Positions 8,110 through 26,054 of a stretch of DNA of 53,626 nucleotides are shown here, in pieces. The position numbers and the translations under genes were made by a program. Within the stretch, counting starts at the first letter, position 1; each line of letters begins with the position of its first letter. The notes below the pieces were generated by a model. The model saw only the letters and a list, made by a program, of their open reading frames with translations. It did no database searches and was not told the origin of the DNA. Source of the stretch: Patescibacteria group bacterium. GTDB lineage: Bacteria; Patescibacteriota; Minisyncoccia; Phycocordibacterales; JACOZG01. The stretch lies in assembly GCA_038058475.1 (NCBI GenBank), contig JBBUAW010000004.1:1-53626 (forward strand), in the 5' to 3' direction.

Positions 8110-8154
8110 GGGAAAATTATAGCATTTCATATTTTGTGCTACAATATGGAAAAA
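8110..8154. promoter_or_regulatory. Divergent pair of extended -10 promoters (oxidoreductase operon / hydrogenase operon)
   Basis: TGCTATAAT on - at 8116-8124; TGCTACAAT on + at 8137-8145. Confidence 0.7.
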
Positions 8155-8652: not shown

Positions 8653-8667
8653 TTTTAATTTTTCACT

Positions 8668-10829: not shown

Positions 10830-10843
10830 TATTATAAATTATA

Positions 10844-11221: not shown

Positions 11222-11230
11222 CTTTTTATT

Positions 11231-11986: not shown

Positions 11987-12632
11987 TGTAAAATTTCAGC
12001 AATTCTTCAGCCTTGGGCAGGCAAGCCGGATTACCGATGCCGACTTTAGTTTTCTTCTGCAGATCACTCAGCGTCCGCGCGCCTTCAATCACCGCTTCTT
12101 CAATGTCCGCTTCCGTTACTTTGGTATCGGGATCAATAATAGCCGTGCCTTCAACGATCACGCGCTGATACTGGCCGGTTTGTTTAAACCAGTCGTTTAA
12201 CGCCGCGCACAAGGCCTTATCGCCCAGCACCGAGCAATGAATCTTACGGTCGGGCAGGCCGCCCAATCGTTTGGTGATGTCCTGTGGCCTGATCGCCAGC
12301 GCCTGATCCACCTTCAGACCGCCGTGCTCGGTCACCATCACCGACAACATTGAGGTCGCGGCGATCGCGCTGGCGCAGCCGAAAGTTCGCCATTTAAATT
12401 CTTTAATCCGATCGGTCGCCGGATCAACTTTTAGCCAAACCCTCATCACGTCGCCGCAAGCGGGCGAACCGATGATTCCTTGAGCGTTGTATTGATCGGT
12501 TTTCGGGTCTTGCAACAACAGATTTCGCGGTTGGAAAAAATGTTCCTTCACCATCTTGCTATACACCCAACTGCCGGCAGTCCGGCTGATCACCTCCGGC
12601 TTGATATTTTTTGATTTATTTTTTTTAATCAT
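11967..12632 (-). CDS. iscU: Fe-S scaffold IscU/NifU N-domain fused to a degenerate BFD-like domain
   Basis: YSKMVKEHF, GSPACGD, FGCASAIA, KIHCSVL; C-terminal VTEADIEEAVIEGARTL. Confidence 0.9.
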   Translation of the reverse strand: MIKKNKSKNIKPEVISRTAGSWVYSKMVKEHFFQPRNLLLQDPKTDQYNAQGIIGSPACGDVMRVWLKVDPATDRIKEFKWRTFGCASAIAATSMLSVMVTEHGGLKVDQALAIRPQDITKRLGGLPDRKIHCSVLGDKALCAALNDWFKQTGQYQRVIVEGTAIIDPDTKVTEADIEEAVIEGARTLSDLQKKTKVGIGNPACLPKAEELLKFYSEKYFG

Positions 12633-13926
12633 ATTTTTTTACTTTTTTGATCGCGTAAAGTGCGGTGCGCGTAAAGTGTGGTGTTTGGCCGCCGATAAAC
12701 GCTTGGGGCAAGGAAATTAATTTTTTCCGACTGGTTAATTTTAAATTAAGCGGCGACATTTGGCGAAGATCGCTCACAATTATCGACAGATGTTTAAGCA
12801 CGTAATTTATTGCCGATCTCGTCGTCTCTCTGCCCAAAGTAAAACGCAGACTGCCGTGAATGTATTCGTAAGGCCGGCCGAGAGCCTCAATGATATAAGA
12901 CGGTTCAAGGGTTTGAGAATTGCACGCCGAACCGGTGCCGACCGAGATATTTTTATCGTCCAAACGCAAAAGCATCGCCTCGCCCTCAATGTCCAAAATG
13001 GAAACATTCAAAAAATTCGGGAGACGTTTGACCGGGTGACCATTCAAAATTACTTTCGGTATCCGGTTTAAAATTTGTTTTTCCAAATAATCGCGCAAAA
13101 TTTTAATTCGCCGCGTTTCTTTCTTTCGTTCTTGAGTCACCAGCTCAAGGGCTTTGGCAAAACCGATAATCGCCGGCAAGTTTTCGGTTCCCGAACGAAG
13201 ATTGTTTTGCTGGCCGCCGCCGTAAATGAGCGGTGTTAATTTCAACTTACCTCGAACCAGAAGACCGCCGATACCTTTCGGCCCGCCGAGTTTGTGGGCG
13301 GACAGAGTCAATAAATCAACCAGCAAATGTTCGGCGTCAATGTTTAAATAAGCGGCGGCTTGAGTCGCGTCGGTGTGAAGGTAGGGATGCGCCTGCCCTC
13401 GCGCGCGGCGAAACTTTTTCACTAACGCGGCAATTTGTTGAATGGGCTGGATGGTTCCGGTTTCGCTGTCGGCCAAAGTGACGGATAACAGAATCGTTTT
13501 TTCATTAAGGGCCGCGGCTAATTGTCGAAGATTGATCAGGCCGTTTTTATTGACGCCGATAGTAACGATTTCAAAACCTTCGGTAGCCAAGGCCGCGGCC
13601 GCGGCCAGAATCCCTTTGTGCTCAACCGCCGAAACAATAATACGGTTTCCTTGAGATTTTAACGCTCGCGCCGCGCCCAAAATCGCCAGGTTATCCGCTT
13701 CGGTGGCGGAGCCGGTAAAAATAAATTCGGCCGGCGGGCCGCCAAAAATATCAATAATTTTTTGCCGCGCGCAATCCAACGCTTGTCTCGCTTCGTGCCC
13801 TAATTTATACAAACTGGCGGAATTACCGAATCGGCGGCTGAAAAAGGGGAGCATCGCTCGCATGACTCGGGGGTCAAGCGGCGCGGTCGCGGCGTAATCA
13901 AAATAGTATTTAGTCAATGCTCGCAT
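12625..13926 (-). CDS. iscS: Cysteine desulfurase IscS/NifS
   Basis: YFDYAATAP, GSATEADN, HTDATQ, SAHKLGGPKG (PLP Lys), RSGTEN, GSAC. ATG 13926 follows TGTTATACT. Confidence 0.93.
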   Translation of the reverse strand: MRALTKYYFDYAATAPLDPRVMRAMLPFFSRRFGNSASLYKLGHEARQALDCARQKIIDIFGGPPAEFIFTGSATEADNLAILGAARALKSQGNRIIVSAVEHKGILAAAAALATEGFEIVTIGVNKNGLINLRQLAAALNEKTILLSVTLADSETGTIQPIQQIAALVKKFRRARGQAHPYLHTDATQAAAYLNIDAEHLLVDLLTLSAHKLGGPKGIGGLLVRGKLKLTPLIYGGGQQNNLRSGTENLPAIIGFAKALELVTQERKKETRRIKILRDYLEKQILNRIPKVILNGHPVKRLPNFLNVSILDIEGEAMLLRLDDKNISVGTGSACNSQTLEPSYIIEALGRPYEYIHGSLRFTLGRETTRSAINYVLKHLSIIVSDLRQMSPLNLKLTSRKKLISLPQAFIGGQTPHFTRTALYAIKKVKKYD

Positions 13927-13966
13927 CGCCCGTCCAGTATAACAGAAAACAGGGGAGTTATTTAAA

Positions 13967-14004
13967 AACAAAAAAAACGCCAGACTTGGTGGCCTAGCGT
14001 TTTT
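13967..14004 (-). terminator. Probable intrinsic terminator of the 63-aa gene
   Basis: AAAAACGC...GCGTTTTT inverted repeat with a U-run on the minus strand. Confidence 0.5.
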
Positions 14005-14019
14005 AACCCCTTTTGCCGG

Positions 14020-14211
14020 TCACTCCAAATCGGCGATGATAGGAAGTGGCGTTTTTGCTTTTTCCCTGCAACCGGGGCAGTTAATATTCTCAAGATCAGT
14101 GGCCTCGGTCCAGGAATGTTCCGGCGGCCAGTTCTCTAATTCGTCATCTGAAAACCCACACAACGGTCTCTCATCAACAAGTGCATGGACGATCAAATCC
14201 CTGTTTTCCAT
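14020..14211 (-). CDS. Small hypothetical protein, possible zinc finger
   Basis: H-x8-C...CPGC; SD-like AAGGTGA upstream; own terminator. Confidence 0.65.
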   Translation of the reverse strand: MENRDLIVHALVDERPLCGFSDDELENWPPEHSWTEATDLENINCPGCREKAKTPLPIIADLE

Positions 14212-14355
14212 TGTTTCTCACCTTTTAAACAAAAAACCCCAATTTGTCCAAAAACTACTCACAATATTATCACACTATTTTAACACTGGCAAGTGCCGTA
14301 ATATATCATGGCCTTCGCAACACCAAAGAGAGTAAAATAGCGACTGGCGCGCCGT

Positions 14356-14832
14356 CTAATTTATTTTCCCGACAAGCACCACATAATTCTTGCCGTATTT
14401 TTTGGCACACTTGGGGCAGGTGGTGTACCACCAGTATTGTTTGACAACTTTCAAATTTTTGCTTTTCGCGTCCGCGTCGTATTCCGCACACCATTTATTG
14501 ATATTACTGTAGGATCCTTCGTAGACTTTGCTTACAAATTTTCCGGATAATGTTGTGTTTTCGGCGTCAGCGACTTCCTTGTCCACTGCCACATATAAAT
14601 CCATATTCCATTTTGAGGTATGGTCGGAAAGCCATATTCCGTCTTGAATTGTAGCGCCGGCTTTTTCCACTTTCTCATAAACTCGCTTCATAACTCCGCC
14701 AAAATTCATCGGCATGTAAAACAAAATAAAAACTTTATCTTTGATAAATTTTTTATTCGCCCACTCAAAAACTTTTCCGTCCCAAAGAACGGGATCAAAC
14801 TTAGGACAACATTCTTGATTTTGATTGTTCAT
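14356..14832 (-). CDS. Conserved hypothetical protein (GyrI-like fold), with CCP and CPKC motifs
   Basis: ECCPKFDP...SKVYEGSY...YTTCPKCAKKYGKNYVV. Confidence 0.75.
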   Translation of the reverse strand: MNNQNQECCPKFDPVLWDGKVFEWANKKFIKDKVFILFYMPMNFGGVMKRVYEKVEKAGATIQDGIWLSDHTSKWNMDLYVAVDKEVADAENTTLSGKFVSKVYEGSYSNINKWCAEYDADAKSKNLKVVKQYWWYTTCPKCAKKYGKNYVVLVGKIN

Positions 14833-14865
14833 AGATTTTTCCGCGAACCGGCGGATTATTTAATA

Positions 14866-14933
14866 ATAATTATTCGACTATTTTAATTATATCAAATATG
14901 CCGCCACTCCAAGGGTAGTCCTCCGACTGGAGT
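14866..14933. repeat. Promoter plus palindrome module, copy 1
   Basis: TAATTATTCGAC..ATTATATCAAAT..CCGCCACTCCAAGGGTAGTCCTCCGACT, repeated with few changes at 18565-18630. Confidence 0.85.
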
Positions 14934-14966
14934 TCAGCTTTCCTTTTATTTTTGTGTATATTTATA

Positions 14967-15410
14967 TTATTTTTCTACTATTTTTCGCAACTTATCAATA
15001 AAGGCACGTTTCCAAGACCACATAGCGAACCACTTTATCAAAGGTGTTCCTATAACTCTCAATATAGGGCGATGAATTTCAATATCATATAAATAGGTGA
15101 TTTTAGTACCTCCCTCAATATCCTCCATCAAAAATTCTTCGTGACCTGAAGTTCCAAAAGAAGATTGATTGCTAGACCTAAAGCCAATATTAGGCAGAAG
15201 CTCTGTTTGCATTTTTACATCAAAAACTTTCCCGAAAGATTTCACTCGTGCATTCATTTTTTGATGATTTCCTTGCTTTTCAGATATGTGTACTGATTCG
15301 GCAATAGTTGGAAAATATTTTGGCATATTTTCAAAATCAGAAATTATTTTATAAATTTCTTCTTTTGGAGCTTTAATTATCCATGAACCCCTTAATTGTA
15401 ATTTCTTCAT
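14967..15410 (-). CDS. SRPBCC / polyketide cyclase-like protein
   Basis: IKAPKEEIYKIISDFENMPKYFP...GGTKITY. Confidence 0.82.
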   Translation of the reverse strand: MKKLQLRGSWIIKAPKEEIYKIISDFENMPKYFPTIAESVHISEKQGNHQKMNARVKSFGKVFDVKMQTELLPNIGFRSSNQSSFGTSGHEEFLMEDIEGGTKITYLYDIEIHRPILRVIGTPLIKWFAMWSWKRAFIDKLRKIVEK

Positions 15411-15426
15411 ATTCCCATTTAGAACT

Positions 15427-15756
15427 TTAGTCGCTAATAAATAAACTATGCAGAAGAATGAAAAGAATGGTGAGGATTCCTATGCCGACTGACGCATACA
15501 CGAGAATGGAAGACTCCTTGTATTTTCGTATGGCTACTAAGCCCAGAACGAAGGCGGTGAGGCTGGCTAAGCCTAAAACTGGAACGGTAATATCCCACCA
15601 GCGATCGCCATACGAGAGCAAGCCAAGACCATTGACGAGTAATATTGAAATACCAACACCAATCAGGAAAAAAGCATGCAACCACACAGACCACTTTCCT
15701 AAGTGAGTTTTTGGTAAAAAATTTGAGAGTTGTGAGTACCAGTTGTAGGTGGGCAT
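15427..15756 (-). CDS. Small 3-TM membrane protein with a TspO-like N-terminal 10 aa (apparent chimera)
   Basis: ATG 15756: MPTYNWYSQL-SNFLPKTHLGKWSVW...; three hydrophobic segments. Confidence 0.7.
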   Translation of the reverse strand: MPTYNWYSQLSNFLPKTHLGKWSVWLHAFFLIGVGISILLVNGLGLLSYGDRWWDITVPVLGLASLTAFVLGLVAIRKYKESSILVYASVGIGILTILFILLHSLFISD

Positions 15757-15775
15757 ACATTTACTTTTTTCTCCA
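15728..15775. repeat. ~48-bp direct repeat, copy 1 (WRKK-stop / MxTYNWYSQL junction)
   Basis: Minus strand TGGAGAAAAAAGTAAATGTATGCCCACCTACAACTGGTACTCACAACT matches 17289-17369 once a 33-bp insert is removed. Confidence 0.8.
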
Positions 15776-15949
15776 GAATTTAAACTTATCAAAAAACAAG
15801 ATCCGCAAGCCCAACAATTCAAACCCAATAACTGCAAGCCATGATCCGGGCGTAAATGGCGTAAAAAAGGCAAAAAGTCCCACTATGATTAAAATAACGC
15901 CAACTATTTTTTTAATCTTTAGCCTCTCTCTTAAGTGTTCCTCCAACAT
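15761..15949 (-). CDS. Small membrane protein (PGPGW-like)
   Basis: GVILIIVGLFAFFTPFTPGSWLAVIGFELLG. Confidence 0.72.
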   Translation of the reverse strand: MLEEHLRERLKIKKIVGVILIIVGLFAFFTPFTPGSWLAVIGFELLGLRILFFDKFKFWRKK

Positions 15950-15981
15950 TGTGAGATATTTCACAAATTCATTCTACTTGT

Positions 15982-16017
15982 CCCGCCGAAGTCCCACAAT
16001 AGCAGGACGAAGGAGGA
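15982..16017. repeat. Short dispersed hairpin element (CCCG-CCGAA-stem-loop-AAGGAGG)
   Basis: Same architecture as the 33-bp insert at 17312-17344. Confidence 0.55.
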
Positions 16018-16039
16018 CCATTATTTTTAAAATTTTTTA

Positions 16040-16077
16040 CCCCCTCACCAATAATTTGCAAAAGATTGGTGTGGGGG
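16040..16077. repeat. 13-bp inverted repeat (REP-like element or terminator)
   Basis: CCCCCTCACCAAT / ATTGGTGTGGGGG, one mismatch. Confidence 0.65.
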
Positions 16078-16129
16078 CCTTTTCGTTATCCCCGTTGTGG
16101 AGAAAAAAGGGATCAGCGGAGATGCTCCC

Positions 16130-16525
16130 TTAAACCATTTTTGAATACTGATGATAATTTTCTCTTACAGCGTTTTTCCAATTTGCTGTTTCGTTTCCAT
16201 CACCCAAATCTGTCTTGTTATACACCAATAAAACATGAACTATAGATGTGTTCTTGTGAACAGCGACAATACACCTATTACCTGAAGAACGCCTTGATTC
16301 TTGCGTGCCATGAACACGAAATTCAGTTTTACAAATCCTTACATCCCCGACTTCTGTAATAGTTTCCGCAATATTTGTTTGCCCAATCAAAGTGTCAATG
16401 CGCTTAAACTCCTCATGCATACCAACCCATGTCACATCCCAAGCACCTTTATATTTCTTTTTAAAGCTAGAAATAAAGTGTCGTTCTGCGTATTGTTCTA
16501 TTACAACAGCATAATTAGTAAACAT
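16130..16525 (-). CDS. Putative toxin (RelE/HigB-like fold) paired with Panacea antitoxin
   Basis: Overlaps the antitoxin stop by 11 nt; C-terminal SSGNRCIVAV...VLLVYNKTDL resembles RelE-family GxRxI...LxxYxKxD. Confidence 0.6.
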   Translation of the reverse strand: MFTNYAVVIEQYAERHFISSFKKKYKGAWDVTWVGMHEEFKRIDTLIGQTNIAETITEVGDVRICKTEFRVHGTQESRRSSGNRCIVAVHKNTSIVHVLLVYNKTDLGDGNETANWKNAVRENYHQYSKMV

Positions 16526-17192
16526 AATCCGGGTCTTGCTGAATTATCAATTCGTACGGAATTGTTTCGTCAGGAGAACAAAGTTTATAAGGCAACTGTT
16601 CGTGGGTAAAATCTACAATTTCCTGCGTTCTTTTATCTTTCCATTTTGTAGAGATTTTTTTCATCAAACCCAATTCGCCTTCGCTTATCAGGTCTAATTC
16701 CTGGTGTTTAGCGCCTGTACCGATGAGAACAGCATCTCCTTTGTAGTCAACAGTAATTTTTCCCTCTTCTTCGAGCTCGGCTAACGCTCTAAAATATGGA
16801 TCAGGAACTGGGCCGTATGTTCTCCGGAGATACTGCATTCCGCTCATGCTCTCAAGTTTATTGTAATACCATGCAAAATCAGCAAGATAGAGAAGCTTGG
16901 CAAGTTTAGTCTTTGGAATTTTCCCATCAGTAGAGAGGGGTGATTGTAAATAAGCAAGGATCATTTGCTTGTATTTTTCATATTTTGGCAAAGTTGCTTT
17001 TGCAAATTCTTCAATAGAAATACCAAATAAATCTTTTAATTTCTCTGCTTCTTCTAGGGTAAGGCCTCTATTTCCACTCTCGATAGAAACATAGGAAGGT
17101 CGGGAAAGGCTTAATTTGTCTGCTACAAAAGATTGCGAAAAACCTCGCTCTGTTCTAAGCGCCTTTATAAATTTGGCATATTTATTAGTCAT
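16515..17192 (-). CDS. XRE-HTH plus Panacea (DUF4065/SocA) antitoxin
   Basis: IKALRTERGFSQSFVADKLSLSRPSYVSIESG (XRE HTH); KLAKLLYLADF, YGPVP and FTHEQLPY (DUF4065). Confidence 0.87.
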   Translation of the reverse strand: MTNKYAKFIKALRTERGFSQSFVADKLSLSRPSYVSIESGNRGLTLEEAEKLKDLFGISIEEFAKATLPKYEKYKQMILAYLQSPLSTDGKIPKTKLAKLLYLADFAWYYNKLESMSGMQYLRRTYGPVPDPYFRALAELEEEGKITVDYKGDAVLIGTGAKHQELDLISEGELGLMKKISTKWKDKRTQEIVDFTHEQLPYKLCSPDETIPYELIIQQDPDYVY

Positions 17193-17198
17193 GCTTTT

Positions 17199-17226
17199 AG
17201 TATATTCGTATATGTAAAAAAGTCAA
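17199..17226 (-). promoter_or_regulatory. Sigma70 promoter of the TA operon (leaderless)
   Basis: TTGACT-16-TATACT, 6 nt before ATG 17192. Confidence 0.6.
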
Positions 17227-17274
17227 ACATTTAGTGTTGATAAAATTGACAAGCAAAATAAGGGGTATAAATAC

Positions 17275-17350
17275 ATGATGGTTTTATCAGTTGTGAGTAC
17301 TAGTTGTATGTGCCTGCCCGTCCGAAGCGTATACGCAAAGGAGGGTTCAT
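17275..17350 (-). pseudogene. 5' relic of a TspO/MBR-like gene with a nonsense change and a 33-bp insertion
   Basis: ATG AAC [33 bp] ACA TAC AAC TAG TAC TCA CAA CTG ATA AAA CCA TCA = MN-TYN*YSQLIKPS; WYxxLxKPxW is the TspO N-terminal motif. Confidence 0.55.
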
Positions 17351-17380
17351 TCATTTATTTCTTTCTCCACCCATCTAAAT

Positions 17381-18175
17381 TTACCGTAAAAAATTATTAA
17401 TTGCGATCGTAGTATCCTTAAAAATAAAGATATCATTATGGTTAGCCCCAGCAATGGAAACGAATTCCTTATCGTCTGAGTCAATATTCTCAAAGAACGT
17501 TCTGGCGAGTTTTTGTGGGATTATCGTATCGTTTTCACCATGGATAATAAGCACTCTACCGGTGAAATTTTTCAAAGATTTCACATTGTCAAAAGCGTTG
17601 TTAACCATAAAGGAAGTAGGATAATACCAATATATACTATGAGCTAAGTCTTTCAAGCTAGAAAAAGCGGTAAATAACAGTAATTTCTGAGGAGGAAGCA
17701 GACTGGCATGTAGCGAAGCTGGACCGCTTCCAATACTTTCCCCGACGACCAACACCTCTTTGAACTGACGTGATTCAATAAATGTAATAACATCTCTTAC
17801 ATTTCCTTTTATGCCATTGTGTGAAGGTGTTTTCCCGTCGTTTGAATATCCTTCATATTCGACAATCAAATATGAGTAACCATTATTTTCAAAAAATAAC
17901 GCCCAATAATCTCGGTCGCAAGCAGAGCCGGCGTTTCCGTGATAGAGAACGACCAGTTTTTCACCCGCCTCTTTGTAATAAGCTCGTGTTGCGCCAAACC
18001 GAATTTTATCTGCCGAACTTAGTGCCGGGCAATTATCAAAATCTTGCGAAAATGGTGAGTAAATAAGCCTTTCTTGAAATAGTGTTATTACGATACCAAA
18101 ACCGACGTAGAAAATTACCAATATCAAAAGTGCAATTTTGGAAGCCTTATTGAATGCAAAAAAGTTTTTCATCAT
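17381..18175 (-). CDS. Alpha/beta hydrolase (ABHD/BEM46-like), N-terminal TM
   Basis: HGNAG, GESIG nucleophile elbow, IHGEND, GANHND. Confidence 0.9.
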   Translation of the reverse strand: MMKNFFAFNKASKIALLILVIFYVGFGIVITLFQERLIYSPFSQDFDNCPALSSADKIRFGATRAYYKEAGEKLVVLYHGNAGSACDRDYWALFFENNGYSYLIVEYEGYSNDGKTPSHNGIKGNVRDVITFIESRQFKEVLVVGESIGSGPASLHASLLPPQKLLLFTAFSSLKDLAHSIYWYYPTSFMVNNAFDNVKSLKNFTGRVLIIHGENDTIIPQKLARTFFENIDSDDKEFVSIAGANHNDIFIFKDTTIAINNFLR

Positions 18176-18332
18176 GTTTGCTTTAAAATCTCCTTTTCGT
18201 TTTGAATTTAATTGGGCAGGGGAGGTTATTTTTTATCGCCGAATTCCTGCCCCGCCACTGCGGGACGCGCCGCAATCTTTTATCTAAATAAACGAAAGTT
18301 TAAAGCTGCCATACAGGCAAAAATCTTATCAG

Positions 18333-18542
18333 CTACTTTTTAACAAAAAGCGACATAGCAAAAGCAACAAAGCCAAGACCCAAACCGATAAATAATCCCG
18401 CCGGAATATTATCTGTCATAAAACCATAACCTAAGCCTAAAAGTACTCCAGCTGGGATAAATAAAGCACCGGGTTTTGAATGATATCCGTGGTTGTAATG
18501 TTCATCACAACATTTTTCATTATCCTTTTTTTCTTGTTCCAT
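18333..18542 (-). CDS. Small 2-TM membrane protein with Cys/His-rich N-terminus
   Basis: KCCDEHYNHGYH followed by GVLLGLGYG...GLFIGLGLG; extended -10 upstream. Confidence 0.7.
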   Translation of the reverse strand: MEQEKKDNEKCCDEHYNHGYHSKPGALFIPAGVLLGLGYGFMTDNIPAGLFIGLGLGFVAFAMSLFVKK

Positions 18543-18564
18543 ATTATTTTTTATTAATTATTAA

Positions 18565-18630
18565 TAATTACTCGACAATTTTATTATATCAAATTTTAAA
18601 TACCGCCACTCCAAGGGTAGCCCTTCGACT
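18565..18630. repeat. Promoter plus palindrome module, copy 2
   Basis: TAATTACTCGAC..ATTATATCAAAT..CCGCCACTCCAAGGGTAGCCCTTCGACT. Confidence 0.85.
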
Positions 18631-18791
18631 AAACACACAATATCGTGTACATAAAGCCATACCAAAGGACAAAAAAGACCGGCCATCCTGGATTTTTAAA
18701 GAGACTTCCGTCACCGATTGTATTAACAATAAATTCAAATATATAGTGCAGTTGGATAAGAATAAATTAGAAATTTAAGATATTTTTTCAT
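18629..18791 (-). pseudogene. Possible frameshifted and truncated membrane-protein relic
   Basis: MKKYLKFLIYSYPTAL, one extra base, then IFEFIVNTIGDGSLFKNPGWPVFFVLWYGFMYTILCV*; ends at the repeat. Confidence 0.4.
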
Positions 18792-18841
18792 TTTTTTGTG
18801 GTGACAACTTTCTAATCCTAGCGCCGAGATAGATGAATGAC

Positions 18842-18868
18842 AACTGGCGAGGATAGTCCTCGCCAGTT
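18842..18868. repeat. REP-like perfect palindrome, copy A
   Basis: AACTGGCGAGGA-TAG-TCCTCGCCAGTT, 12-bp perfect stem. Confidence 0.9.
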
Positions 18869-18919
18869 CCGATTATACCTTTTCCGAACTTTATCGGATG
18901 TGGTTTTTGCCACGACCCC

Positions 18920-18948
18920 TTGCATACCGAACGAGTTTATGGTATAAC
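18920..18948 (+). promoter_or_regulatory. Sigma70 promoter of the polysaccharide operon
   Basis: TTGCAT-17-TATAAC with TG extension. Confidence 0.6.
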
Positions 18949-19009
18949 ACTTTTGCCTGACTCCTGTTAGTGTGGCAGGTATTTTTATGGCTTAAAACAT
19001 GAAGATTCT

Positions 19010-20293
19010 ATGAAAAATCAAAAGAACATTGCGGTTGTTGGCCTCGGCTATGTTGGACTTCCTCTTGCGCTTTTAACAGAGCGGAAGGGTTTTAATGTAT
19101 CTGGAATAGATATTGATACTAAGAAAATAGAGAAACTTCGAGGAAGAAAGATACCATTCCTAGATGATGAAGTAGAACAGTATTTCATTAAGGCGAAAAA
19201 TATTTCATTTTCCGCCGACTTTTCGTCTGTCTCGGATTCATCAATTGTTATCATTTGTGTCCCGACTCCGGTACACGAAAATCATATCCCCGATCTGAGG
19301 CCTGTTATCGGCGCGACAGAAGGGGTTGCCACGCATCTTCAAAAAGGCCAGCTCGTTATCCTTGAATCTACCGTCAATCCTGGAGTGTGTGAAAGCGTGG
19401 TTCTTCCGATTCTTGAAAAGAAATCCGGTTTGCGCGCTGGTGTAGATTTTCATATCGCACATTGTCCGGAGCGAATAAACCCAGGCGACAAAAAATGGAA
19501 TGTTGAAAACATAAACCGTGTCGTGGGAGCCACAGACGCTGAGGGTCTTCGCCTCGCCGCTTCATTTTACGAAAGCATTACGACTGGCATGATCAAGCGT
19601 ATGAGCACAATCAAAGCCGCTGAAGCGGTGAAGGTTGTTGAGAATTCTTTTCGTGATATTAACATCGCGTTCGTGAACGAGCTTGCTCGTTCATTTACGA
19701 AACTCGGCATTGATGTCGTGGAGGTTATTGATGGTGCCGCCACTAAACCGTTTGCGTTCATGGCGCATTACCCAGGTTGCGGAGTCGGCGGACACTGCAT
19801 TCCTGTTGATCCGTACTATCTAATTGAATATGCCAAGCAAAACGGATTTGAGCATGATTTCCTCGCTCTCGCGCGGAGGATCAATAATAATATGCCCCAC
19901 TTTACAGTAGAGCGTCTTCGCAACGGGTTAGATGAAATAGCTCACTCACTCAAAGGAACCACGGTTGCTGTTCTCGGCGTCTCTTACAAACCAGATATTG
20001 ATGACTGCCGACAGAGCCCCTCATTCGATATAATCCGCATTCTCAAAGAGTACGGTGCGGATGTGCGCGTATTTGATCCGTTTGTGCCCAAAAAATCAAC
20101 GGCGAAAAGCCTGGATGAAGCAGTGCAAGGCGCGCAAGCCGTTGTGGTAGCGACAGCGCACAAGGATTTCAAGGAATTGACCCCCGATTACTTTGTAAAT
20201 AACGGAGTAAAGGTCGTCGTGGATGGTCGCAATTGTCTGCCGAAAGAAAACTTTGTTAAAGCGGGGATTATTTATAAAGGGGTGGGGAGGTAG
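19010..20293 (+). CDS. Nucleotide-sugar 6-dehydrogenase, WbpA/WecC-type (UDP-GlcNAc or UDP-ManNAc)
   Basis: GLGYVG, CVPTP, ESTVNPG, PERINPG, KVVENSFRDINIA, GGHCIPVDPYY, YKPDIDD. Confidence 0.92.
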   Translation: MKNQKNIAVVGLGYVGLPLALLTERKGFNVSGIDIDTKKIEKLRGRKIPFLDDEVEQYFIKAKNISFSADFSSVSDSSIVIICVPTPVHENHIPDLRPVIGATEGVATHLQKGQLVILESTVNPGVCESVVLPILEKKSGLRAGVDFHIAHCPERINPGDKKWNVENINRVVGATDAEGLRLAASFYESITTGMIKRMSTIKAAEAVKVVENSFRDINIAFVNELARSFTKLGIDVVEVIDGAATKPFAFMAHYPGCGVGGHCIPVDPYYLIEYAKQNGFEHDFLALARRINNNMPHFTVERLRNGLDEIAHSLKGTTVAVLGVSYKPDIDDCRQSPSFDIIRILKEYGADVRVFDPFVPKKSTAKSLDEAVQGAQAVVVATAHKDFKELTPDYFVNNGVKVVVDGRNCLPKENFVKAGIIYKGVGR

Positions 20294-20305
20294 GAAGAAT
20301 GCTTT

Positions 20306-21604
20306 ATGAAGAAAATCTTTAATTTCAAAAACGCAAGACGGATAAATTTATGGGTAATCTTTTATTTGGTTGTATACATAATTCTTGTCATAAAATTAGT
20401 AACAATTCAACAGATTGGTAACGGAATTTTATTCGCAACTTATAGTATAGCTGTTTCTTTTTATATCCTTAGCCGGTTTAGCCTTGCTTATTTTTATAAA
20501 CCATCAGTTCCAGAATCCGATTTGACTTATGAGCCAACAATCTCTTTTGCGGTACCCTCAAAAAATGAGGGGGAAAATATCCGCGAAACAATTTTAAAAA
20601 TCGCAAATACTAATTATCCTAAAAATAAATTTGATATTATAGCCATAAATGATGGCTCTGATGACAACACATTAGATGAAATGTTGAGGGCAAAAAAAAT
20701 TGTTGAAAATAAAAACTATATTGATGGAAATGTATCAGTGAAAGTAATAGACTGGAAAATTAATAGAGGAAAACGAGAAGGAATGGCAGAAAGTGTGCGT
20801 CAATCGGATAAAGATATTGTTATTTTTATTGATTCTGATAGTTTTATAGACCCTGAAGCTGCGCGGGAATTGGTTAAATATTTTATTTATGACGAAGTTG
20901 CCGCGGTTGCCGGTCATGCGTATGTTGCAAATGCACAAACGAATTTTTTGACAAAAATGCAGGCGGTAAGATACTTTGTAGCTTTTAAGGCTTATAAAGC
21001 CGCCGAAGCCCTTTTCGGTGCTGTAACTTGTTGTTCTGGGTGTTGTTCCGCTTATCGTCGTTCTTATATGAATGAAGTGATGAATGAGTGGCTTAATCAA
21101 AAATTTCTTGGTGTTCAATGTACCTATGGTGATGACAGGAGTTTAACAAATTATCTTTTGCGGAAAGGGTATAAGACTTTGTTTTCGAATGAGGCGATAG
21201 CATATACATTTGTTCCTGATACATTAAACAAATTCATAAAACAACAATTTCGATGGAAAAAATCGTGGGTTCGAGAAAGTCTAATTGCTGGAACGTTTAT
21301 GTGGAAGAGAAATCCGATCATGTCAATTTCGTTTTATCTTGGAATTATATTGCCACTACTTGCTCCGATTATAGTAATAAGAGCACTCGTTTGGTATCCG
21401 TATACTACAGGGAATGCGCCGTTTTATTATCTTTTTGGGTTATTACTTATGGCTATAGTTTATGGATTATATTATTACATTTACACTCTGGATAAAAAAT
21501 GGGTATATGGAGTAGTTTTTGCGGCATTCTATACAATCATTCTTATCTGGCAATTGCCGTGGGCAATTTTAAATTTACGTGATGCACGTTGGGGGACTAG
21601 ATAA
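20306..21604 (+). CDS. Processive GT2 synthase, hyaluronan synthase / NodC / IcaA-like
   Basis: NDGS, GKR, FIDSDS, CCSGCCSAYR, GDDRSLTN, QQFRWKKS (QxxRW), WGTR; N- and C-terminal TMs. Confidence 0.9.
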   Translation: MKKIFNFKNARRINLWVIFYLVVYIILVIKLVTIQQIGNGILFATYSIAVSFYILSRFSLAYFYKPSVPESDLTYEPTISFAVPSKNEGENIRETILKIANTNYPKNKFDIIAINDGSDDNTLDEMLRAKKIVENKNYIDGNVSVKVIDWKINRGKREGMAESVRQSDKDIVIFIDSDSFIDPEAARELVKYFIYDEVAAVAGHAYVANAQTNFLTKMQAVRYFVAFKAYKAAEALFGAVTCCSGCCSAYRRSYMNEVMNEWLNQKFLGVQCTYGDDRSLTNYLLRKGYKTLFSNEAIAYTFVPDTLNKFIKQQFRWKKSWVRESLIAGTFMWKRNPIMSISFYLGIILPLLAPIIVIRALVWYPYTTGNAPFYYLFGLLLMAIVYGLYYYIYTLDKKWVYGVVFAAFYTIILIWQLPWAILNLRDARWGTR

Positions 21605-21618
21605 ATGACACAAAAATT

Positions 21619-23199
21619 ATGAAGAAAATAATTCCAAGAAGGATTTTCATCAAAAAAGCGCCTCTCGCGGTTCTTGTTTTTGCTGTCTTAGGATTTGGTC
21701 TTTTTGCATATGATGCCAATAAGGATTTTATAAGTAATTTTCAATTTTATCACATTAAGTCTTATACAACGTTAGTTTCTCACGCAGTATTTAATGAAAA
21801 TAATAACAACTTAGCTTCAGCATTAGGAGTTCTCGCGACTAATAACGAAGCGGGGAATCTTAACATTGAACAGAAATTTGCAAAATCAGTTCCCGCACTA
21901 CTCTATCACAGCATCATTAATGAGCCGGACGGAAGCAATATATTATTGGAAAATTTTAAAGACCAAATGTTTTCGTTAAAGAAAGCCGGATGGCAGACGG
22001 TGAGTATTGAAGATTTTTATTCTTTTATGAAGGGAGAAAAAGAATTGCCGGATAAATCTTTTCTTCTTACTTTTGACGATGGGGCAAAGAATAGTTATTA
22101 CCCCGTGGACCCAATCCTTCGTGCTCTTGATTTTCGCGCAGTCATGTTTGTGATCACTTCGCGGACTACGAGCCCATTTTATTTATCCGTTCGCGAATTG
22201 GATAAAATGGTAAAATCAGGTCGATGGGATTTACAATCGCATGGACAAGATGATCATGATTTTTATCCAATCAATTCAACTGACGAAAAAGGACATTTTT
22301 TGAGCAATAAACTATGGTTCAAAGACGTTGGACGTCTTGAAACATCGGAGGAATTCCGATTAAGAATTTCTAATGATTTGAAAGAATCAAAAAAGTGGTT
22401 AGAAGAACGTTATGGTAAACCTATTGTCAGCTATGCTTACCCGTTCGGTGATTATGGACAAAATTCTCTTAATTTTGTTGAAGGTGTAATACCTATGATT
22501 GAAGAGGTTGCCAGATCTATTTATCCAATATCTTTCTATCAAGTGTGGGAAGGAAAAGGACACGCTTTCAATTATCCAGAGCCAACGGAGTTTATGATAA
22601 AACGCATTTCTGTTAAGTCAGATTGGACAGATGTAAAATTATTGTCAGTTTTAGAAAAAGGAAGTTCAAAAGATTTGCCATACGAGGATGCATTTTCTGA
22701 AACGAGTGGTTTAATTAAAACTTGGGGCAATCTTAATATCCACAATAATGCTATATTTATCGGCGCAAATGCTTCAACGACAGGCTCGTCATTATTTCTT
22801 GACGGATCTTATTTATGGCAGAATTATGTTTTCAAGGCTGGTGTTAATTTGACGAAAGGGCAAACTTTTTCATTGACGGCTAGATACAAAGACGACAAAA
22901 ATTACGTGGCTTGTTCATTTTCTGATAAGTCCATAAGAGTGGAACGTTTTTTAAACGGAGAGAGGAAAGTTTTGTCAGAATTAAAAGGCAATTTTGTTTT
23001 CCTGAATAAAAATCGCGAGGTGGGAATAGGAGTATATGACAGTACGGTTAACTGCTATGTGGATGGCAAAATAGCAATGAAGGGATATCACTTAGATGAA
23101 CATTTAGATCAGGGCGAAATCGGATTTAAAACATGGGATCCTCAAATAAATAACAGTGAATTGGTTATTAAAAGTATTTCTGTCGAGGAAATAAAATGA
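21619..23199 (+). CDS. Polysaccharide deacetylase (IcaB/PgaB-like CE4) with C-terminal beta-sandwich domain
   Basis: PALLYH, LLTFDDG, QSHGQDDH, AYPFG; N-terminal TM. Confidence 0.88.
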   Translation: MKKIIPRRIFIKKAPLAVLVFAVLGFGLFAYDANKDFISNFQFYHIKSYTTLVSHAVFNENNNNLASALGVLATNNEAGNLNIEQKFAKSVPALLYHSIINEPDGSNILLENFKDQMFSLKKAGWQTVSIEDFYSFMKGEKELPDKSFLLTFDDGAKNSYYPVDPILRALDFRAVMFVITSRTTSPFYLSVRELDKMVKSGRWDLQSHGQDDHDFYPINSTDEKGHFLSNKLWFKDVGRLETSEEFRLRISNDLKESKKWLEERYGKPIVSYAYPFGDYGQNSLNFVEGVIPMIEEVARSIYPISFYQVWEGKGHAFNYPEPTEFMIKRISVKSDWTDVKLLSVLEKGSSKDLPYEDAFSETSGLIKTWGNLNIHNNAIFIGANASTTGSSLFLDGSYLWQNYVFKAGVNLTKGQTFSLTARYKDDKNYVACSFSDKSIRVERFLNGERKVLSELKGNFVFLNKNREVGIGVYDSTVNCYVDGKIAMKGYHLDEHLDQGEIGFKTWDPQINNSELVIKSISVEEIK

Positions 23200-24080
23200 A
23201 AAAATATATTTTAGTGTTTTTAACCCTCTTTCTTTCGGTGGGCGGGTTCATCATTGCATGGCAAGGTTCTTATTTTAATAAAGTTGCTAGAAGTATCTTA
23301 TTATTGCCGAACAAACAGATGGCTTCAGTTGCGGCTGTGGTGAGTTCGCCATTTTACTACACCTTTAAAATAGATGGAATTCTCGACGAGGCAGGAAAAA
23401 TGAACAATAGCTCGAGCCCCTACTTCTGGCTTAATTCCGGTGGATTATTTTATTTGAAAAATGGTATAGGCAAAACTATTCAAGGAGAATTATCGCAATT
23501 TAATAAATGGCGTTTAGCTTATGCTATTTCTAATCCGATTGATACCGATAACGGTTACTATCCGCAGAATATTTTCCGCCTGGTGACCAGAAGCAAATGG
23601 CAGAATTTTTCGCAGGAAGCGTATTTTAAAATCACAAAGATGAATATGAGCGCGAGCGTCAACAGAGATGTCTCAAACGGAATTTTGCTTTTTAACCGCT
23701 ATCAAGACGGCAATAATCTTTACTATGCCGGCATTCGCGTTGACGGACAGGCGGTCGTGAAGAAAAAAATAAACGGCGACTACTACACCATCGGCATATC
23801 TCCTGTATTTAAGGGTGAGGATAACAGGCAATCAAATCCGAACTTATTGCCGGAGAATGTCTGGCTCGGTCTGCGCAGTGAAATAACAACTAACGGCAAT
23901 GAGGTGATGATAAAGCTGTTTATTGATAAAGAAAACAACGGGGAATGGCAATTGGCGCTTGAAGCAAAAGACGACGGCAAAAGCTACGGCGGAGCAGCAA
24001 TCTTAGACGAAGGCCACGCCGGGATTCGTACAGATTTTATGGATGCAGAGTTTGATAATTACAGAATTGTGGATAATTAG
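23196..24080 (+). CDS. Exported beta-sandwich (ConA/LamG-like) hypothetical protein
   Basis: N-terminal signal/TM; beta-rich; ends GHAGIRTDFMDAEFDNY; ATGA-coupled to the deacetylase. Confidence 0.7.
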   Translation: MKKYILVFLTLFLSVGGFIIAWQGSYFNKVARSILLLPNKQMASVAAVVSSPFYYTFKIDGILDEAGKMNNSSSPYFWLNSGGLFYLKNGIGKTIQGELSQFNKWRLAYAISNPIDTDNGYYPQNIFRLVTRSKWQNFSQEAYFKITKMNMSASVNRDVSNGILLFNRYQDGNNLYYAGIRVDGQAVVKKKINGDYYTIGISPVFKGEDNRQSNPNLLPENVWLGLRSEITTNGNEVMIKLFIDKENNGEWQLALEAKDDGKSYGGAAILDEGHAGIRTDFMDAEFDNYRIVDN

Positions 24081-24170
24081 CACAGGGAGCTAAATTTTTT
24101 CCTCATCTCCCCTAAAATTTAGTCTGTACCATAAGGCACTATACTCTTTTGTCTATGCTAGAATAGTCTC

Positions 24171-24803
24171 ATGCTTACGGTTATCAAAAAATATTGGTTC
24201 CTAATCCTTTTCAACATTGTTTATGTTACAGTTTTTGCCGTCTATTATCTATCGATTAAAAATTATGAATTTCTTTGGTATGTTGCCATTTTGCTCTTTT
24301 TTCTAACCTTGATCTTATCTACCTTGAAGCGCACTCATTTCGGGACGATAATTCTTTGGGGTTTATCACTTTGGGGATTGATGCATATGGCCGGTGGTGG
24401 CATCAAGGTGGGGGAGAAGGTCCTCTATGCTTGGCCAATTGTCCAGCTGTTTGGTGAAGGAGAATCGCTCGTGCTCAAATTTGATCAATTTGTTCATTTC
24501 TTCGGTTTTGGTGTGGCCACCATTGTTTTCTACCACCTCTTGCGATTCTATTTGGACAAAAATGATATCATAATTAACTGGACCGTGCTTTACCCCCTAA
24601 TCGTTTTGGGCGGAATGGGGATTGGAGCTTTGAATGAGATTCTTGAATTTGTCGCGGTGGTCGCTTTTGGCCAGACGGGAGTCGGTGGTTACTGGAATAC
24701 CGCCCTTGACCTAGTTTTCAACATGCTAGGGGCGATAGCCGCGACAATCTTGATCCATTTCCATTATCGTCAAAAACCAGTTCTGATGGAAGAAAAAAGG
24801 TGA
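24171..24803 (+). CDS. Integral membrane protein (DUF2238/YjdF-like)
   Basis: MHMAGG, FDQFVHFFG, NEILEF, YWNTALDL. Confidence 0.78.
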   Translation: MLTVIKKYWFLILFNIVYVTVFAVYYLSIKNYEFLWYVAILLFFLTLILSTLKRTHFGTIILWGLSLWGLMHMAGGGIKVGEKVLYAWPIVQLFGEGESLVLKFDQFVHFFGFGVATIVFYHLLRFYLDKNDIIINWTVLYPLIVLGGMGIGALNEILEFVAVVAFGQTGVGGYWNTALDLVFNMLGAIAATILIHFHYRQKPVLMEEKR

Positions 24804-24824
24804 GGTTCATTCATAAACCTCACC
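24799..24824. repeat. 9-bp inverted repeat at gene end
   Basis: GGTGAGGTT-N8-AACCTCACC. Confidence 0.55.
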
Positions 24825-24827
24825 CTG

Positions 24828-24854
24828 CACTGGCGAGGATAGTCCTTGCCAGTG
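24828..24854. repeat. REP-like palindrome, copy B
   Basis: CACTGGCGAGGA-TAG-TCCTTGCCAGTG; direct repeat of 18842-18868. Confidence 0.9.
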
Positions 24855-24907
24855 TTGCTCGTCTTGGCGAGACGAAACCACTAGTTAATATCAGGAGATC
24901 CCCTCGG

Positions 24908-24980
24908 CTCCGCGGGCAGGACTCGAACCTGCGACCAATCGGTTAACAGCCGACCGCTCTACCAACTGAGCTACCGCGGA
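24908..24980 (-). tRNA. tRNA-Asn(GTT), CCA not encoded
   Basis: TCCGCGGTAGCTCAGTTGGTAGAGCGGTCGGCT-GTT-AACCGATTGGTCGCAGGTTCGAGTCCTGCCCGCGGAG forms a complete cloverleaf. Confidence 0.97.
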
Positions 24981-25064
24981 GCCGAAGGGGTCTCATCCAA
25001 TTAATCTTTTAGCTTACCAAATTCTTTAATTATTACCAAATCCGTTTCGCTGATGTTATAATCT

Positions 25065-25667
25065 ATGAAAGTAGATATGCGTTCCGTCTTAATAATTCTC
25101 CTCATTTTGATCGCTGGCGTGGTAATTTTTGTTTATAATTATAATTCTAATAACAATCCTAATGATCAAATTCAAACCACTATGACCTTGGCCGGCACTT
25201 TAAGTTTAAGCAGTCCGGCCTTTGCCGCCGGCGGACTGATTCCCGTTAAATATACTTGCGATGAAGCGACATCGGCCGGTGGCGTTAATCCGCCATTGGC
25301 GATTACCGGCGTACCGGCCAAAACGCAATCATTGGTTTTAATTATGGACGACCCCGATGCGGTCAAACCGGCGGGACGGGTTTGGGATCATTGGATTGTG
25401 TTTAATCTGCCGCCGACAATCACGACAATTGCCGAAAATACCGTACCGGCCGGGATGGTCGGTCTCAATTCCGGCGGCCAAATTAATTATCAAGGACCTT
25501 GTCCGCCCGATCGCGAGCACCGTTATTTTTTCAAGCTCTATGCTTTAGACACCGCGTTGAATTTAATCGCCGGCGCCAATAAAAAAGAAGTGGAACAAGC
25601 AATGACTGGTCATATTTTAGATCAAGCAGTATTAATCGGTCGTTATGAACGTTTAAGACAAAAATAA
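25065..25667 (+). CDS. YbhB/YbcL-family Raf kinase inhibitor-like (PEBP) protein, N-terminal TM
   Basis: MDDPDA, WDHWIVFN, YQGPCPP, HRYFFKLYALD. Confidence 0.92.
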   Translation: MKVDMRSVLIILLILIAGVVIFVYNYNSNNNPNDQIQTTMTLAGTLSLSSPAFAAGGLIPVKYTCDEATSAGGVNPPLAITGVPAKTQSLVLIMDDPDAVKPAGRVWDHWIVFNLPPTITTIAENTVPAGMVGLNSGGQINYQGPCPPDREHRYFFKLYALDTALNLIAGANKKEVEQAMTGHILDQAVLIGRYERLRQK

Positions 25668-25677
25668 ACAATAAAAA

Positions 25678-26043
25678 ATGAAAATCAATTTTAAAGGCAC
25701 GAATTTAGAATTAAATGACCAATTGCGTTCCTATGTGTTGCTTAAACTGGAGGCGTTGGATAAAATTTTAGCTCTGGAGCGAATTAAGGACGAAGGTTTG
25801 GCCACAGTGGAACTTGGCCGAGTTAATCAGCATCACAAACACGGCGATGTTTTTCGAGCGGAAATTAATCTCCACTGGTCCGGCCGTTATTTCCGCGCCG
25901 AAGCGGAATCCGGTGATTTATACGCGGCGGTTGACGAGGTGAAAGACGAATTATTGCGCGAAATTAAAAGTCAACGCCAACGGCAGGGAACCATCGTTCG
26001 CCGTGGCGCGCGGCTGGTGAAAAAATGGCTGAGCGGCCGATGA
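25678..26043 (+). CDS. raiA: Ribosome hibernation factor (short HPF/RaiA)
   Basis: MKINFKGTNLEL...DLYAAVDEVKDEL. Confidence 0.88.
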   Translation: MKINFKGTNLELNDQLRSYVLLKLEALDKILALERIKDEGLATVELGRVNQHHKHGDVFRAEINLHWSGRYFRAEAESGDLYAAVDEVKDELLREIKSQRQRQGTIVRRGARLVKKWLSGR

Positions 26044-26054
26044 CTACACCTCGA

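Follow-up and report, generated by a model that had tools for sequence, protein, structure and literature searches.

The stretch of DNA analyzed here, called the window throughout, is the 53,626-nucleotide contig JBBUAW010000004.1 (contig C4) of a Patescibacteria group bacterium (assembly GCA_038058475.1), whose genome (G000) comprises 586,584 bp in 32 contigs and is 85.85% complete. A low-GC region in this window carries a series of minus-strand accessory genes followed by a plus-strand polysaccharide operon, and ends beside a tRNA-Asn gene (Table 1). Two palindromes of 27 nt stand at the ends of the operon, and copies of the same palindrome flank a gene on another contig (C1) that encodes a Y1/HUH transposase-like protein. 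A first-pass annotation, made from the letters of the window, had described the region as a hairpin-guided gene-capture island lacking an integrase and mobilized in trans, for example by an enzyme of the HUH/RAYT kind (RAYT, REP-associated tyrosine transposase; REP, repetitive extragenic palindrome). The palindromes, the Y1/HUH gene and the region in which they meet are considered below.

The core motif AGGRTAGYCCT was counted in the whole window, and its chance frequency was estimated by expectation and with 100 shuffles. It was found four times (14912, 18614, 18850, and 24836), always on the plus strand, with 0.02 occurrences expected and none of the 100 shuffles reaching four, in agreement with the motif family first proposed at these positions. 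The four core sites are two distinct pairs, one strong (18850 and 24836) and one weak (14912 and 18614). All four had been taken for hairpins; the two of the strong pair (18842-18868 and 24828-24854) did fold strongly, but those at 14912 and 18614 folded no better than shuffled sequences. The repeat finder returned the strong pair, ACTGGCGAGGATAGTCCT(C/T)GCCAGT, as a 25-nt direct repeat (18843-18867 and 24829-24853) with 96% identity and a spacing of 5986 bp. This bore out the description of two near-identical palindromes that bracket the plus-strand genes of the polysaccharide unit as direct repeats. Between 13500 and 26000 these were the only two strong palindromes, both 27 nt long, and no doublets of the type called REPINs were detected in the window.

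The first of them, REP copy A, occupies the divergent intergenic gap between the minus-strand gene for the open reading frame (ORF) ORF69 (18333-18542) and the plus-strand UDP-glucose dehydrogenase gene (19010), 143 nt upstream of the start of the operon. Folded as DNA (18833-18877) it reached -13.9 kcal/mol (z -7.2), and none of 200 shuffles was as good. In sequence it forms one family with the copies on either side of the RAYT-like gene of C1. REP copy B lies between the DUF2238 gene, whose stop codon precedes it by 25 nt, and the tRNA-Asn gene, whose 3' end is 52 nt away. Its fold (24819-24863) was also unmatched by any of 200 shuffles (-11.8 kcal/mol, z -4.7). Both copies have the same orientation, which in near-perfect palindromes is decided by the 3-nt centre alone. 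Small hairpins at 24797-24826 and at about 24858-24876 were observed on the two sides of REP copy B.

Table 1. Features of the analyzed window and the Y1/HUH gene of contig C1
Feature	Position	Strand	Description
REP copy A	18842..18868		Perfect 27-nt palindrome AACTGGCGAGGA-TAG-TCCTCGCCAGTT
REP copy B	24828..24854		27-nt palindrome with one G-T mismatch; TAG centre on the plus strand
Y1/HUH transposase-like gene	C1 8859-9623 as ORF; 8859-9545 from MERKF	-	Outside the window
5' module copy 1	14815..14940	-	Precedes the PF20603 hydrolase gene; contains a weak REP-like core, AGTCGGAGGACTACCCTTGGAGTGGCGG, then TTTGATATAAT, a leader, and first codons with E-C-C
5' module copy 2	18525..18640	-	Upstream of ORF69
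Half-site AACACTGGCAAG	14282..14293		Exact 12-bp inverted match to 24845-24856
Compositional island	13972..24860		GC 0.36-0.40, reaching 0.45 across the dehydrogenase gene; no other part of the contig is as atypical in tetranucleotide usage
Minus-strand cargo	14020..18542	-	ORF63, PF20603 hydrolase, SRPBCC protein, 67-aa membrane protein, ORF131 and HTH/SocA-Panacea gene, alpha/beta hydrolase, ORF69
Polysaccharide operon	19010..24080	+	UDP-glucose 6-dehydrogenase, family 2 glycosyltransferase (GT2, chitin/hyaluronan-synthase-like), polysaccharide deacetylase, 294-aa protein without a family match (Pfam)
DUF2238 membrane protein gene	24171..24803	+	Last gene ahead of REP copy B; outside the conserved four-gene unit
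tRNA-Asn(GTT)	24906..24980	-	3' end toward the island; right-hand synteny break

The gene on contig C1 was matched by the Pfam family Y1_Tnp ('Transposase IS200 like') with 29.1 bits, the cut-off being 23, and this was the sole match of the family in G000, so that the gene is single-copy in a genome that is 85.85% complete. Four palindromes with a TAG centre were located within 850 bp around and inside its ORF. The flanking copies were placed at 8824 and 9574/9640, one of them about 10 nt past the Y1 stop codon, and an imperfect copy at 9365-9390 is in frame within the gene and encodes C/W-Q-G-x-S-L/S-T/P. The search for a RAYT/TnpA(Y1) gene flanked by the palindrome, suggested with the first-pass annotation, thus gave a positive result, with copies on both sides. 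In an alignment of 10 homologues, the NHFH sequence (the HUH motif) and the tyrosine of AYIHLNP were invariant. Since stop codons were found upstream of M-x-R-K-F in most relatives, MERKF (C1 9545) is the real start in G000, which gives a protein of 228 aa and places one of the flanking palindromes in the 5' untranslated region. The protein also possesses an additional C-terminal part of about 70 aa.

An AlphaFold2 model of the C1 protein was built from the alignment of homologues (pLDDT 79.2, pTM 0.80) and compared with the PDB using Foldseek. The best fold match was 4ER8 (E 1.8e-6, TM 0.61 on the target), the REP-associated tyrosine transposase of E. coli bound to a REP hairpin. The next matches were the TnpA proteins of IS608, IS200, and ISDra2 (2A6O, 2F4F, and 2XM3 among them), interleaved with Thg1 chains. 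The proposal of a HUH/RAYT enzyme acting in trans was therefore upheld in its essentials, the sole Y1 gene lying on C1 and 4ER8 being its top fold match. Because this gene is flanked on both sides by the same palindrome, the two strong palindromes of the window are very probably substrates of the C1 enzyme in trans.

Throughout the genome, 11 matches to the core were counted, corresponding to 10 distinct sites since the ends of C10 and C24 overlap; six distinct sites are on contigs other than C4, among them those on either side of the Y1 gene and within it. Of the 10, eight are palindromes with a TAG centre that fit (C)CACTGGCRAGGATAGTCCTYGCCAGTG(G). The C1 locus has four of these; the other four are dispersed (C2 18330, window 18848 and 24834, and C10/C24), and the dispersed cognate palindrome reads (C)CACTGGCRAGGA-TAG-TCCTYGCCAGTG(G). 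Other copies consisted of three palindromes with non-TAG centres and a few half-sites. Compensatory variants were seen in the stem (GGCGAGG/CCTCGCC versus GTCAAGG/CCTTGAC). When a loose core was used ([CG][AG]AGG-N1-7-CCT[CT][GC]), the genome gave 59 matches and 20 mononucleotide shuffles gave 33-55; the enrichment holds for the full palindromes alone and not for the loose core.

The dispersed copies were mostly intergenic and at the ends of genes, two of them just 3' of tRNA genes. The copy on C2 is in or beside a TIG-domain ORF, the one on C7 is downstream of the rpsI cluster and ahead of a HicAB pair, and the C10/C24 copy is 22 nt 3' of tRNA-Ala, beside ddl. Two copies with a CTG centre were detected on C30, at 5802-5824 in ThyX and at 28920-28942 in MetRS; both are in frame and translated as LSRTVLDS, and the length of the two proteins is unchanged with respect to their orthologues. 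The ThyX site was palindromic in three of five genus genomes, G000 included, with compensatory changes in the arms: G002 (CATCAAGGA-CTA-TCCTTGATG) and G004 (TTGTCAAGGC-GTT-GCCTTGACAA) have perfect palindromes of their own, and the G001 locus fell outside the alignment. The genome-wide count recommended as a check therefore yielded 10 distinct sites and also placed copies within or beside core genes (MetRS, ThyX, rpsI, and tRNA-Ala/ddl). Additionally, C10 80144-80198 and C24 2753-2807 overlap by about 55 nt in the palindrome/tRNA-Ala region. On this overlap, the assembly is broken at a REP copy, and the joined order reads P-type ATPase, REP, tRNA-Ala, ddl.

Other palindromes were also observed in the same genome. 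One different family, GCTGGGAGGAAACGCCTCCCA, is represented in the window at 33952-33982, between convergent genes, and by five further copies on C1, C2, C19, C25, and C30. Five copies of a third family, TGTCAAGGTTWAACCTTGACA, are on C1, C2, C3, C11, and C27. Palindromes of the GGTTWAACC and GCTGGGAGG types occur in this genome. The Y1_Tnp search of the genome gave no second Y1 gene for the families GCTGGGAGGAAACGCCTCCCA or TGTCAAGGTTWAACCTTGACA.

Homologues of the Y1 protein were obtained in 27 of 41 related genomes, and the palindrome skeleton CTGKCRAGGA-NNN-TCCTYGMCAG was present in seven of the 41, G000 included. Ten Y1 loci, that of G000 among them, were fetched and compared, a perfect palindrome being defined by arms of at least 9 nt. 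Perfect palindromes were found on both sides of the gene in six loci (G000, G013, G023, G015, G022, and G009), on one side in one locus, and were absent from three; with a looser pattern, a palindrome-like site was present in nine of the 10. The arms share CAAGG...CCTTG, and the centres vary by genome (TAG, CGA, CTC, GGTTACC, and GGTTAAACC) and are alike within a locus. An in-frame copy inside the gene was found at the same position in five of the 10 loci (L006-L009 and L014 are the ones named), with the centre of the flanking copies of that locus. The orientation of the copies flanking the RAYT gene was inconsistent between genomes. A TAG-type copy was also observed adjoining a Y1_Tnp gene in a Saccharibacteria metagenome-assembled genome (MAG; locus L151).

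These comparisons bear on the reading of the palindromes as regulatory or structural sites of the host (bidirectional terminators, insulators, mRNA-stabilizing hairpins, or operators), with the Y1 gene as a mere neighbor of some copies. Several copies are indeed at gene ends (past DUF2238 and 3' of tRNA-Asn, 22 nt 3' of tRNA-Ala, about 10 nt past the Y1 stop), the pairing of the stem is kept through compensatory changes, and passages of PMC3733652 and PMC3479197 credit REPs elsewhere with roles in termination and mRNA stability. However, no T-run follows either copy in the window and the terminator scan returned neither of them; moreover, in-frame copies are situated inside ORFs, where termination would harm. 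The consistent pairing of Y1 gene and palindrome, with centres that covary across genomes, points instead to a specific relationship between enzyme and repeat, and a host-site origin of the family was considered unlikely.

The weak pair differs from the strong one in several ways. By the repeat finder it is a 31-nt direct repeat (14898-14928 and 18600-18630) with 90% identity, and its folding as DNA was like that of shuffles (14896-14940, -5.0 kcal/mol, z -0.74; 18598-18642, -2.7 kcal/mol, z -0.97). On the minus strand the similarity covers about 130 bp in all, through a leader and into the first codons of two genes, and includes TTTGATATAAT, which we read as an extended -10-like element. The second of these genes encodes ORF69, a protein of 69 aa with an N-terminal CCDEH motif (CCDEH...H...H) and, by eye, two membrane helices. 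With up to two mismatches allowed, the 19-nt core of the weak pair was found nowhere else in G000 and 40 relatives. Because of the ~130-bp similarity, the shuffle-like folding and a 19-nt core present at two places only, sites 14912 and 18614 belong, in our reading, to a 5' gene module of about 130 bp that was duplicated locally. The E/K-C-C first codons and the promoter-like element common to two unrelated proteins suggest shared regulation or a Cys-rich N-terminal tag. The REP-like core of the weak pair, CCAAGGGTAGYCCTYCG, resembles the G015-type palindrome GTCAAGGGTWACCCTTGAC, the type that flanks the RAYT homologue in G015, and may be a decayed REP of another subtype. The region upstream of ORF63 was considered as a third copy of the module and rejected, its similarity being weak. 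The gene relic described as stopping at 18630 was not confirmed: the ORF at 18476-18778 had no Pfam match, and no homology search was made with it.

Could all four core sites belong to one family of operators, with AGGRTAGYCCT as the binding core of a transcription factor that co-regulates the genes of the island? The shared 11-nt core is far above chance, two of the sites are about 25-45 nt upstream of TTTGATATAAT, the promoter-like elements of minus-strand genes, and a strong copy stands 143 nt upstream of the operon start. The distribution of the motif is at odds with this: there are six further distinct core sites on other contigs, including the flanks and the interior of the Y1 gene, and the copy at 24836 follows genes instead of preceding them. 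Beside the sites, no regulator was identified except the HTH-Panacea antitoxin-like gene. A common operator is, on this balance, extremely unlikely.

A half-site had also been reported at 14282-14293, and its exact 12-bp inverted match at 24845-24856 does exist, but chance suffices to account for it (BLAST E 0.31). The degenerate 10-mer CACTGKCRAG gave 17 matches in the genome, the half-site among them and two of them outside clear palindromes, and about 4.5 would occur by chance according to our own arithmetic. The half-site is thus a possible REP relic or a chance match, and is compatible with chance.

The distribution of the polysaccharide operon was then compared with that of the palindromes. 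Of 401 genomes of the class, 17 had a homologue of its GT2; the best matches (62-63% identity) were in other families, and the five genus genomes had none. The dehydrogenase was matched in three of 24 relatives, with 25-30% identity only. Colinearity of the unit of dehydrogenase, GT2, deacetylase, and ORF294 was complete in G270 and G400 and partial in G238 and G057 (loci L146-L149). Perfect palindromes with arms of at least 9 nt were absent from the borders of the unit in all four of these genomes, which belong to other families, and therefore the palindromes are not part of the traveling unit.

Mobility was assessed with Logan contigs from four runs over 12500-26500, in which rare forms are invisible. 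Contigs X1 (11,753 bp) and X2 (17,548 bp) cross both palindromes with no differences, and no joint linking 18.85 kb to 24.85 kb was present in the contigs of the four runs, from which rare excision products would escape. Six joints were listed, the sides of which measure only 21-27 nt. Joints of this kind frequently stem from foreign organisms, and none of the six links both palindromes. X5, from a second study, contributed short identical pieces in the island and its flanks, none crossing a palindrome; these gave no sign of excision, rare forms being invisible in them. The circular junctions that had been anticipated were thus not seen in the contigs of four runs, which is weak evidence.

The reading that these data address takes the palindromes as the ends of gene cassettes and the 6-kb operon as a non-autonomous unit similar to IS200/IS605, excised as single strand and pasted by the Y1 enzyme of C1. 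Y1 transposases of IS200/IS605 mobilize whatever stands between two subterminal hairpins. The abstract of PMC6006769 is consistent with such movement of hairpin-bounded DNA. Here, two cognate palindromes in the same orientation mark precisely the two ends of an operon of foreign composition, the cognate Y1 enzyme is available in trans, and in a second genome, on a Vogelbacteria contig, three genes are enclosed by a same-orientation pair. Nevertheless, the operon occurs in four of four other genomes without bordering palindromes, and no joint or circle junction was found (a weak argument, rare forms being invisible to the contigs of the four runs). The members of the family are otherwise single and inside or beside core genes, the orientation of RAYT-flanking copies is not constant between genomes, the 4.8 kb of cargo on the left has no strong hairpins between its genes or at their borders, and the tRNA gene explains the right border of the island equally well. 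Movement of the operon by the palindromes was accordingly judged very unlikely. Breakpoints of gene content had been expected to coincide with the palindromes; one palindrome is within about 80 bp of such a breakpoint, but palindromes also occur in core regions, and the right-hand synteny break coincides with the tRNA-Asn gene. With only two of four hairpins real, an operon that elsewhere lacks palindromes, copies in core genes, and no joint between the palindromes in these contigs, the hairpin-guided capture island as originally drawn is not supported.

A broader version of the same idea would have the Patescibacteria Y1 enzyme and same-orientation pairs of palindromes define segments excisable as single strands, so that acquired operons are brought in or shuffled in trans by a domesticated mechanism of the IS200/IS605 type, with palindromes also kept in frame in essential genes and evolving in concert with the enzyme. 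We give this a very small probability.

Regarding the region itself, GC falls from about 0.48-0.50 to 0.36-0.40 at 14.0-24.8 kb, and four overlapping 4-kb segments of the island rank at 0.97-1.00 for tetranucleotide distance among 230 such segments of the genome. The compositional check that had been advised thus marked the region as distinct. Every supported gene in 14020-18542 is on the minus strand, as had been stated for the cargo; among them, the gene of the 67-aa membrane protein (15761-15964) is backed by a G004 homologue with 63% identity. Within 16130-17192, a gene with HTH_3 and SocA/Panacea domains overlaps by 11 nt a downstream gene for a 131-aa protein without a family match, and this is the layout of a Panacea antitoxin with a candidate toxin.

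On the right-hand side, synteny with all five genus genomes begins at 25065, and the genes beyond this point are core genes (PEBP, HPF, fmt, def, priA, murA, mreB, frr, proS, lysS, mraZ, and others). To the left of 25065 nothing syntenic with the genus was found, the class-V aminotransferase matches in the genus genomes being in non-syntenic context. At 53-69% identity in fmt, the divergence of these five genomes was too great for exact breakpoints to be placed. The block at 1-13971, which encodes a hydrogenase, POR, ADP-forming acetyl-CoA synthetase, and NifS/NifU, is missing from the genus too. Its NifS/NifU part (12-14 kb) had a counterpart in one of 24 relatives, G009 (contig C4, L052), where the NifS/NifU/NADH-oxidase homologues (44-79% identity) are about 2.3 kb from one RAYT homologue. 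Of the RNA families searched in the window, tRNA alone reached the gathering score. A 31-nt inverted repeat, 81% complementary, was noted around the tRNA-Asn gene (window 24885-25004), and it lengthens the acceptor stem into the sequence on either side.

Among 55 distinct ORFs of the window, none matched a family of integrases or transposases, in line with the statement that no integrase is visible. In the genome, Phage_integrase (PF00589) had a single match (C2 2830-3321) and PF00239 had none. A BLAST-type repeat comparison showed no tRNA-derived direct repeat to the left of the tRNA gene or at the distal border. The palindrome, with up to two substitutions, was found in none of 80 metagenomic loci. 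In L054, the closest metagenomic relative of the locus, the tRNA-Asn gene beside PEBP is retained, and a 505-aa ORF (87-1604) adjoins it and, as listed, extends over the tRNA; its N-terminus resembles a serine recombinase by eye. In our reading, the island is a variable region located at a tRNA gene that serves as a hotspot of integration, and its integrase is gone.

REP/RAYT systems are said to have been treated by Nunvar in 2010. The layout, also named 'REPtron', is described for Proteobacteria in passages of Bertels and Rainey (2011; PMC3116915), Messing (2012; PMC3479197), and Bertels (2017; PMC5581495). As in E. coli TnpA-REP (RayT/YafM) with its REPs and BIMEs (bacterial interspersed mosaic elements), and in the Pseudomonas RAYTs with REPINs, a Y1/HUH gene is flanked here by a palindrome dispersed in the genome, the gene is single-copy, 4ER8 is the best structural match, and the dispersed copies are mostly extragenic. 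Unlike in those systems, there are four dispersed cognate copies in 0.59 Mb instead of hundreds, the palindromes have perfectly matching arms around a centre of 3 nt and form no REPIN doublets in the window, and the protein has its ~70-aa C-terminal extra part and scores below the RAYT cut-off of NCBIfam. In-frame copies in the gene of the enzyme, MetRS, and ThyX, and homologues that are multi-copy in some relatives, are further differences. Judged by sequence and model, the system is a REP/RAYT pair in its fold, its motif, the flanking of the gene, the dispersion of the palindrome, and the single-copy gene, and departs from the type in its curated score, its low copy number, and its lack of doublets.

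With IS200/IS605 elements (IS608 and ISDra2, with single-strand 'peel and paste'), the locus shares the catalytic fold and the hairpins as recognition elements. In formal terms, the 6-kb segment, with a same-strand hairpin at each end, is of the kind that such enzymes move. It differs in having no transposase within this segment, no evidence of excision in the contigs, and no distinct left and right ends, target, or cleavage motifs identified. Small co-oriented accessory genes, a toxin-antitoxin-like pair, and recurring palindromes recall integron arrays (IntI and attC). In such arrays, attC sites are imperfect, 57-141 bp long, and follow every cassette. Here, by contrast, only two strong palindromes are present in 10.5 kb, and the genes carry their own promoter-like module. 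An integron reading was rejected, neither IntI nor, among the strong palindromes of 13500-26000, attC-like sites being found.

Islands linked to a tRNA gene, or flexible islands of the replacement type, offer a further comparison: the position at the 3' side of a tRNA gene, the atypical composition, the absence from the relatives searched, and the recombinase-bearing element (identified by eye) at the same tRNA gene in L054 are alike, and the lack of an integrase in the window and of a tRNA-derived direct repeat at the far border is unlike. The Rickettsia palindromic elements (RPEs), whose in-frame insertion into genes for proteins was reportedly described by Ogata et al. in 2000, are also comparable in that members of a palindromic family are translated inside essential genes; they differ in that the in-gene copies described here leave the length unchanged relative to orthologues and have a partner Y1 gene. 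No published description of a REP/RAYT system for Patescibacteria or the Candidate Phyla Radiation (CPR) was found in the searchable literature, the nearest item being a preprint that notes a KEGG annotation in an archaeon, and the text of the HUH phylogenomics paper PMC6006769 names no CPR group that was searched for.

Taken together, the window probably shows two separate phenomena in contact: a repeat system of the REP/RAYT type and a laterally acquired, low-GC region at the side of a tRNA gene. Several observations weigh against this interpretation. RAYT homologues are multi-copy in several relatives (2-10 matches, up to 10 in G009), unlike the typical single-copy RAYT. The C1 protein obtained 40.1 bits against NCBIfam NF047646 ('REP-associated tyrosine transposase'), whose cut-off is 80, and residues 98-181 alone matched; by its sequence, it is a member of a divergent clade outside the curated proteobacterial RAYT family. 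Sequence searches of the PDB were weak, the single protein giving nothing and the profile reaching E 0.45 to ISDra2 TnpA. Two of the four dispersed cognate copies are 6 kb apart, in the same orientation and exactly at both ends of a foreign operon, for which a rough estimate for four random sites in 586 kb gives a chance of ~0.1, not negligible yet suggestive. The Vogelbacteria MAG contig (L154/L155) has two same-orientation TAG-type palindromes 2.8 kb apart, which enclose three genes (an MFS transporter, an NYN-domain protein, and one of no known kind), with a second MFS paralogue just outside. Finally, the closest metagenomic relative of the locus, L054, is a contig of 2980 bp with a PEBP 75% identical, and did not fix the exact breakpoints.

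Under the interpretation of two phenomena in contact, and on the model of E. coli TnpA-REP and the TnpA of IS200/IS605, the hairpin would be recognized in single-stranded DNA by the C1 enzyme and the strand cleaved next to it, so that the palindromes are copied or maintained. The low-GC region (about 13972-24860) would most probably have arisen at a tRNA hotspot through ordinary integration or recombination, in which a polysaccharide operon patchily shared with other Patescibacteria families would have been joined by small accessory genes. The presence of palindromes at both operon ends would reflect a tendency of REPs to settle between transcription units, and not any movement of the operon by them.

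Therefore, what appeared to be a capture system without an integrase reduces, in this interpretation, to two known things side by side, repeats of the REP/RAYT type and an acquired island linked to a tRNA gene. The kind of system is already known, and it is found here in a phylum for which the searchable literature gave no description of it. Where palindromes seem to punctuate 'cassettes' in ultra-small genomes, a RAYT-like gene elsewhere in the genome should be looked for first. The remaining interest is outside the window, in the in-frame copies carried by the gene of the enzyme itself, MetRS, and ThyX, which change in step between species.

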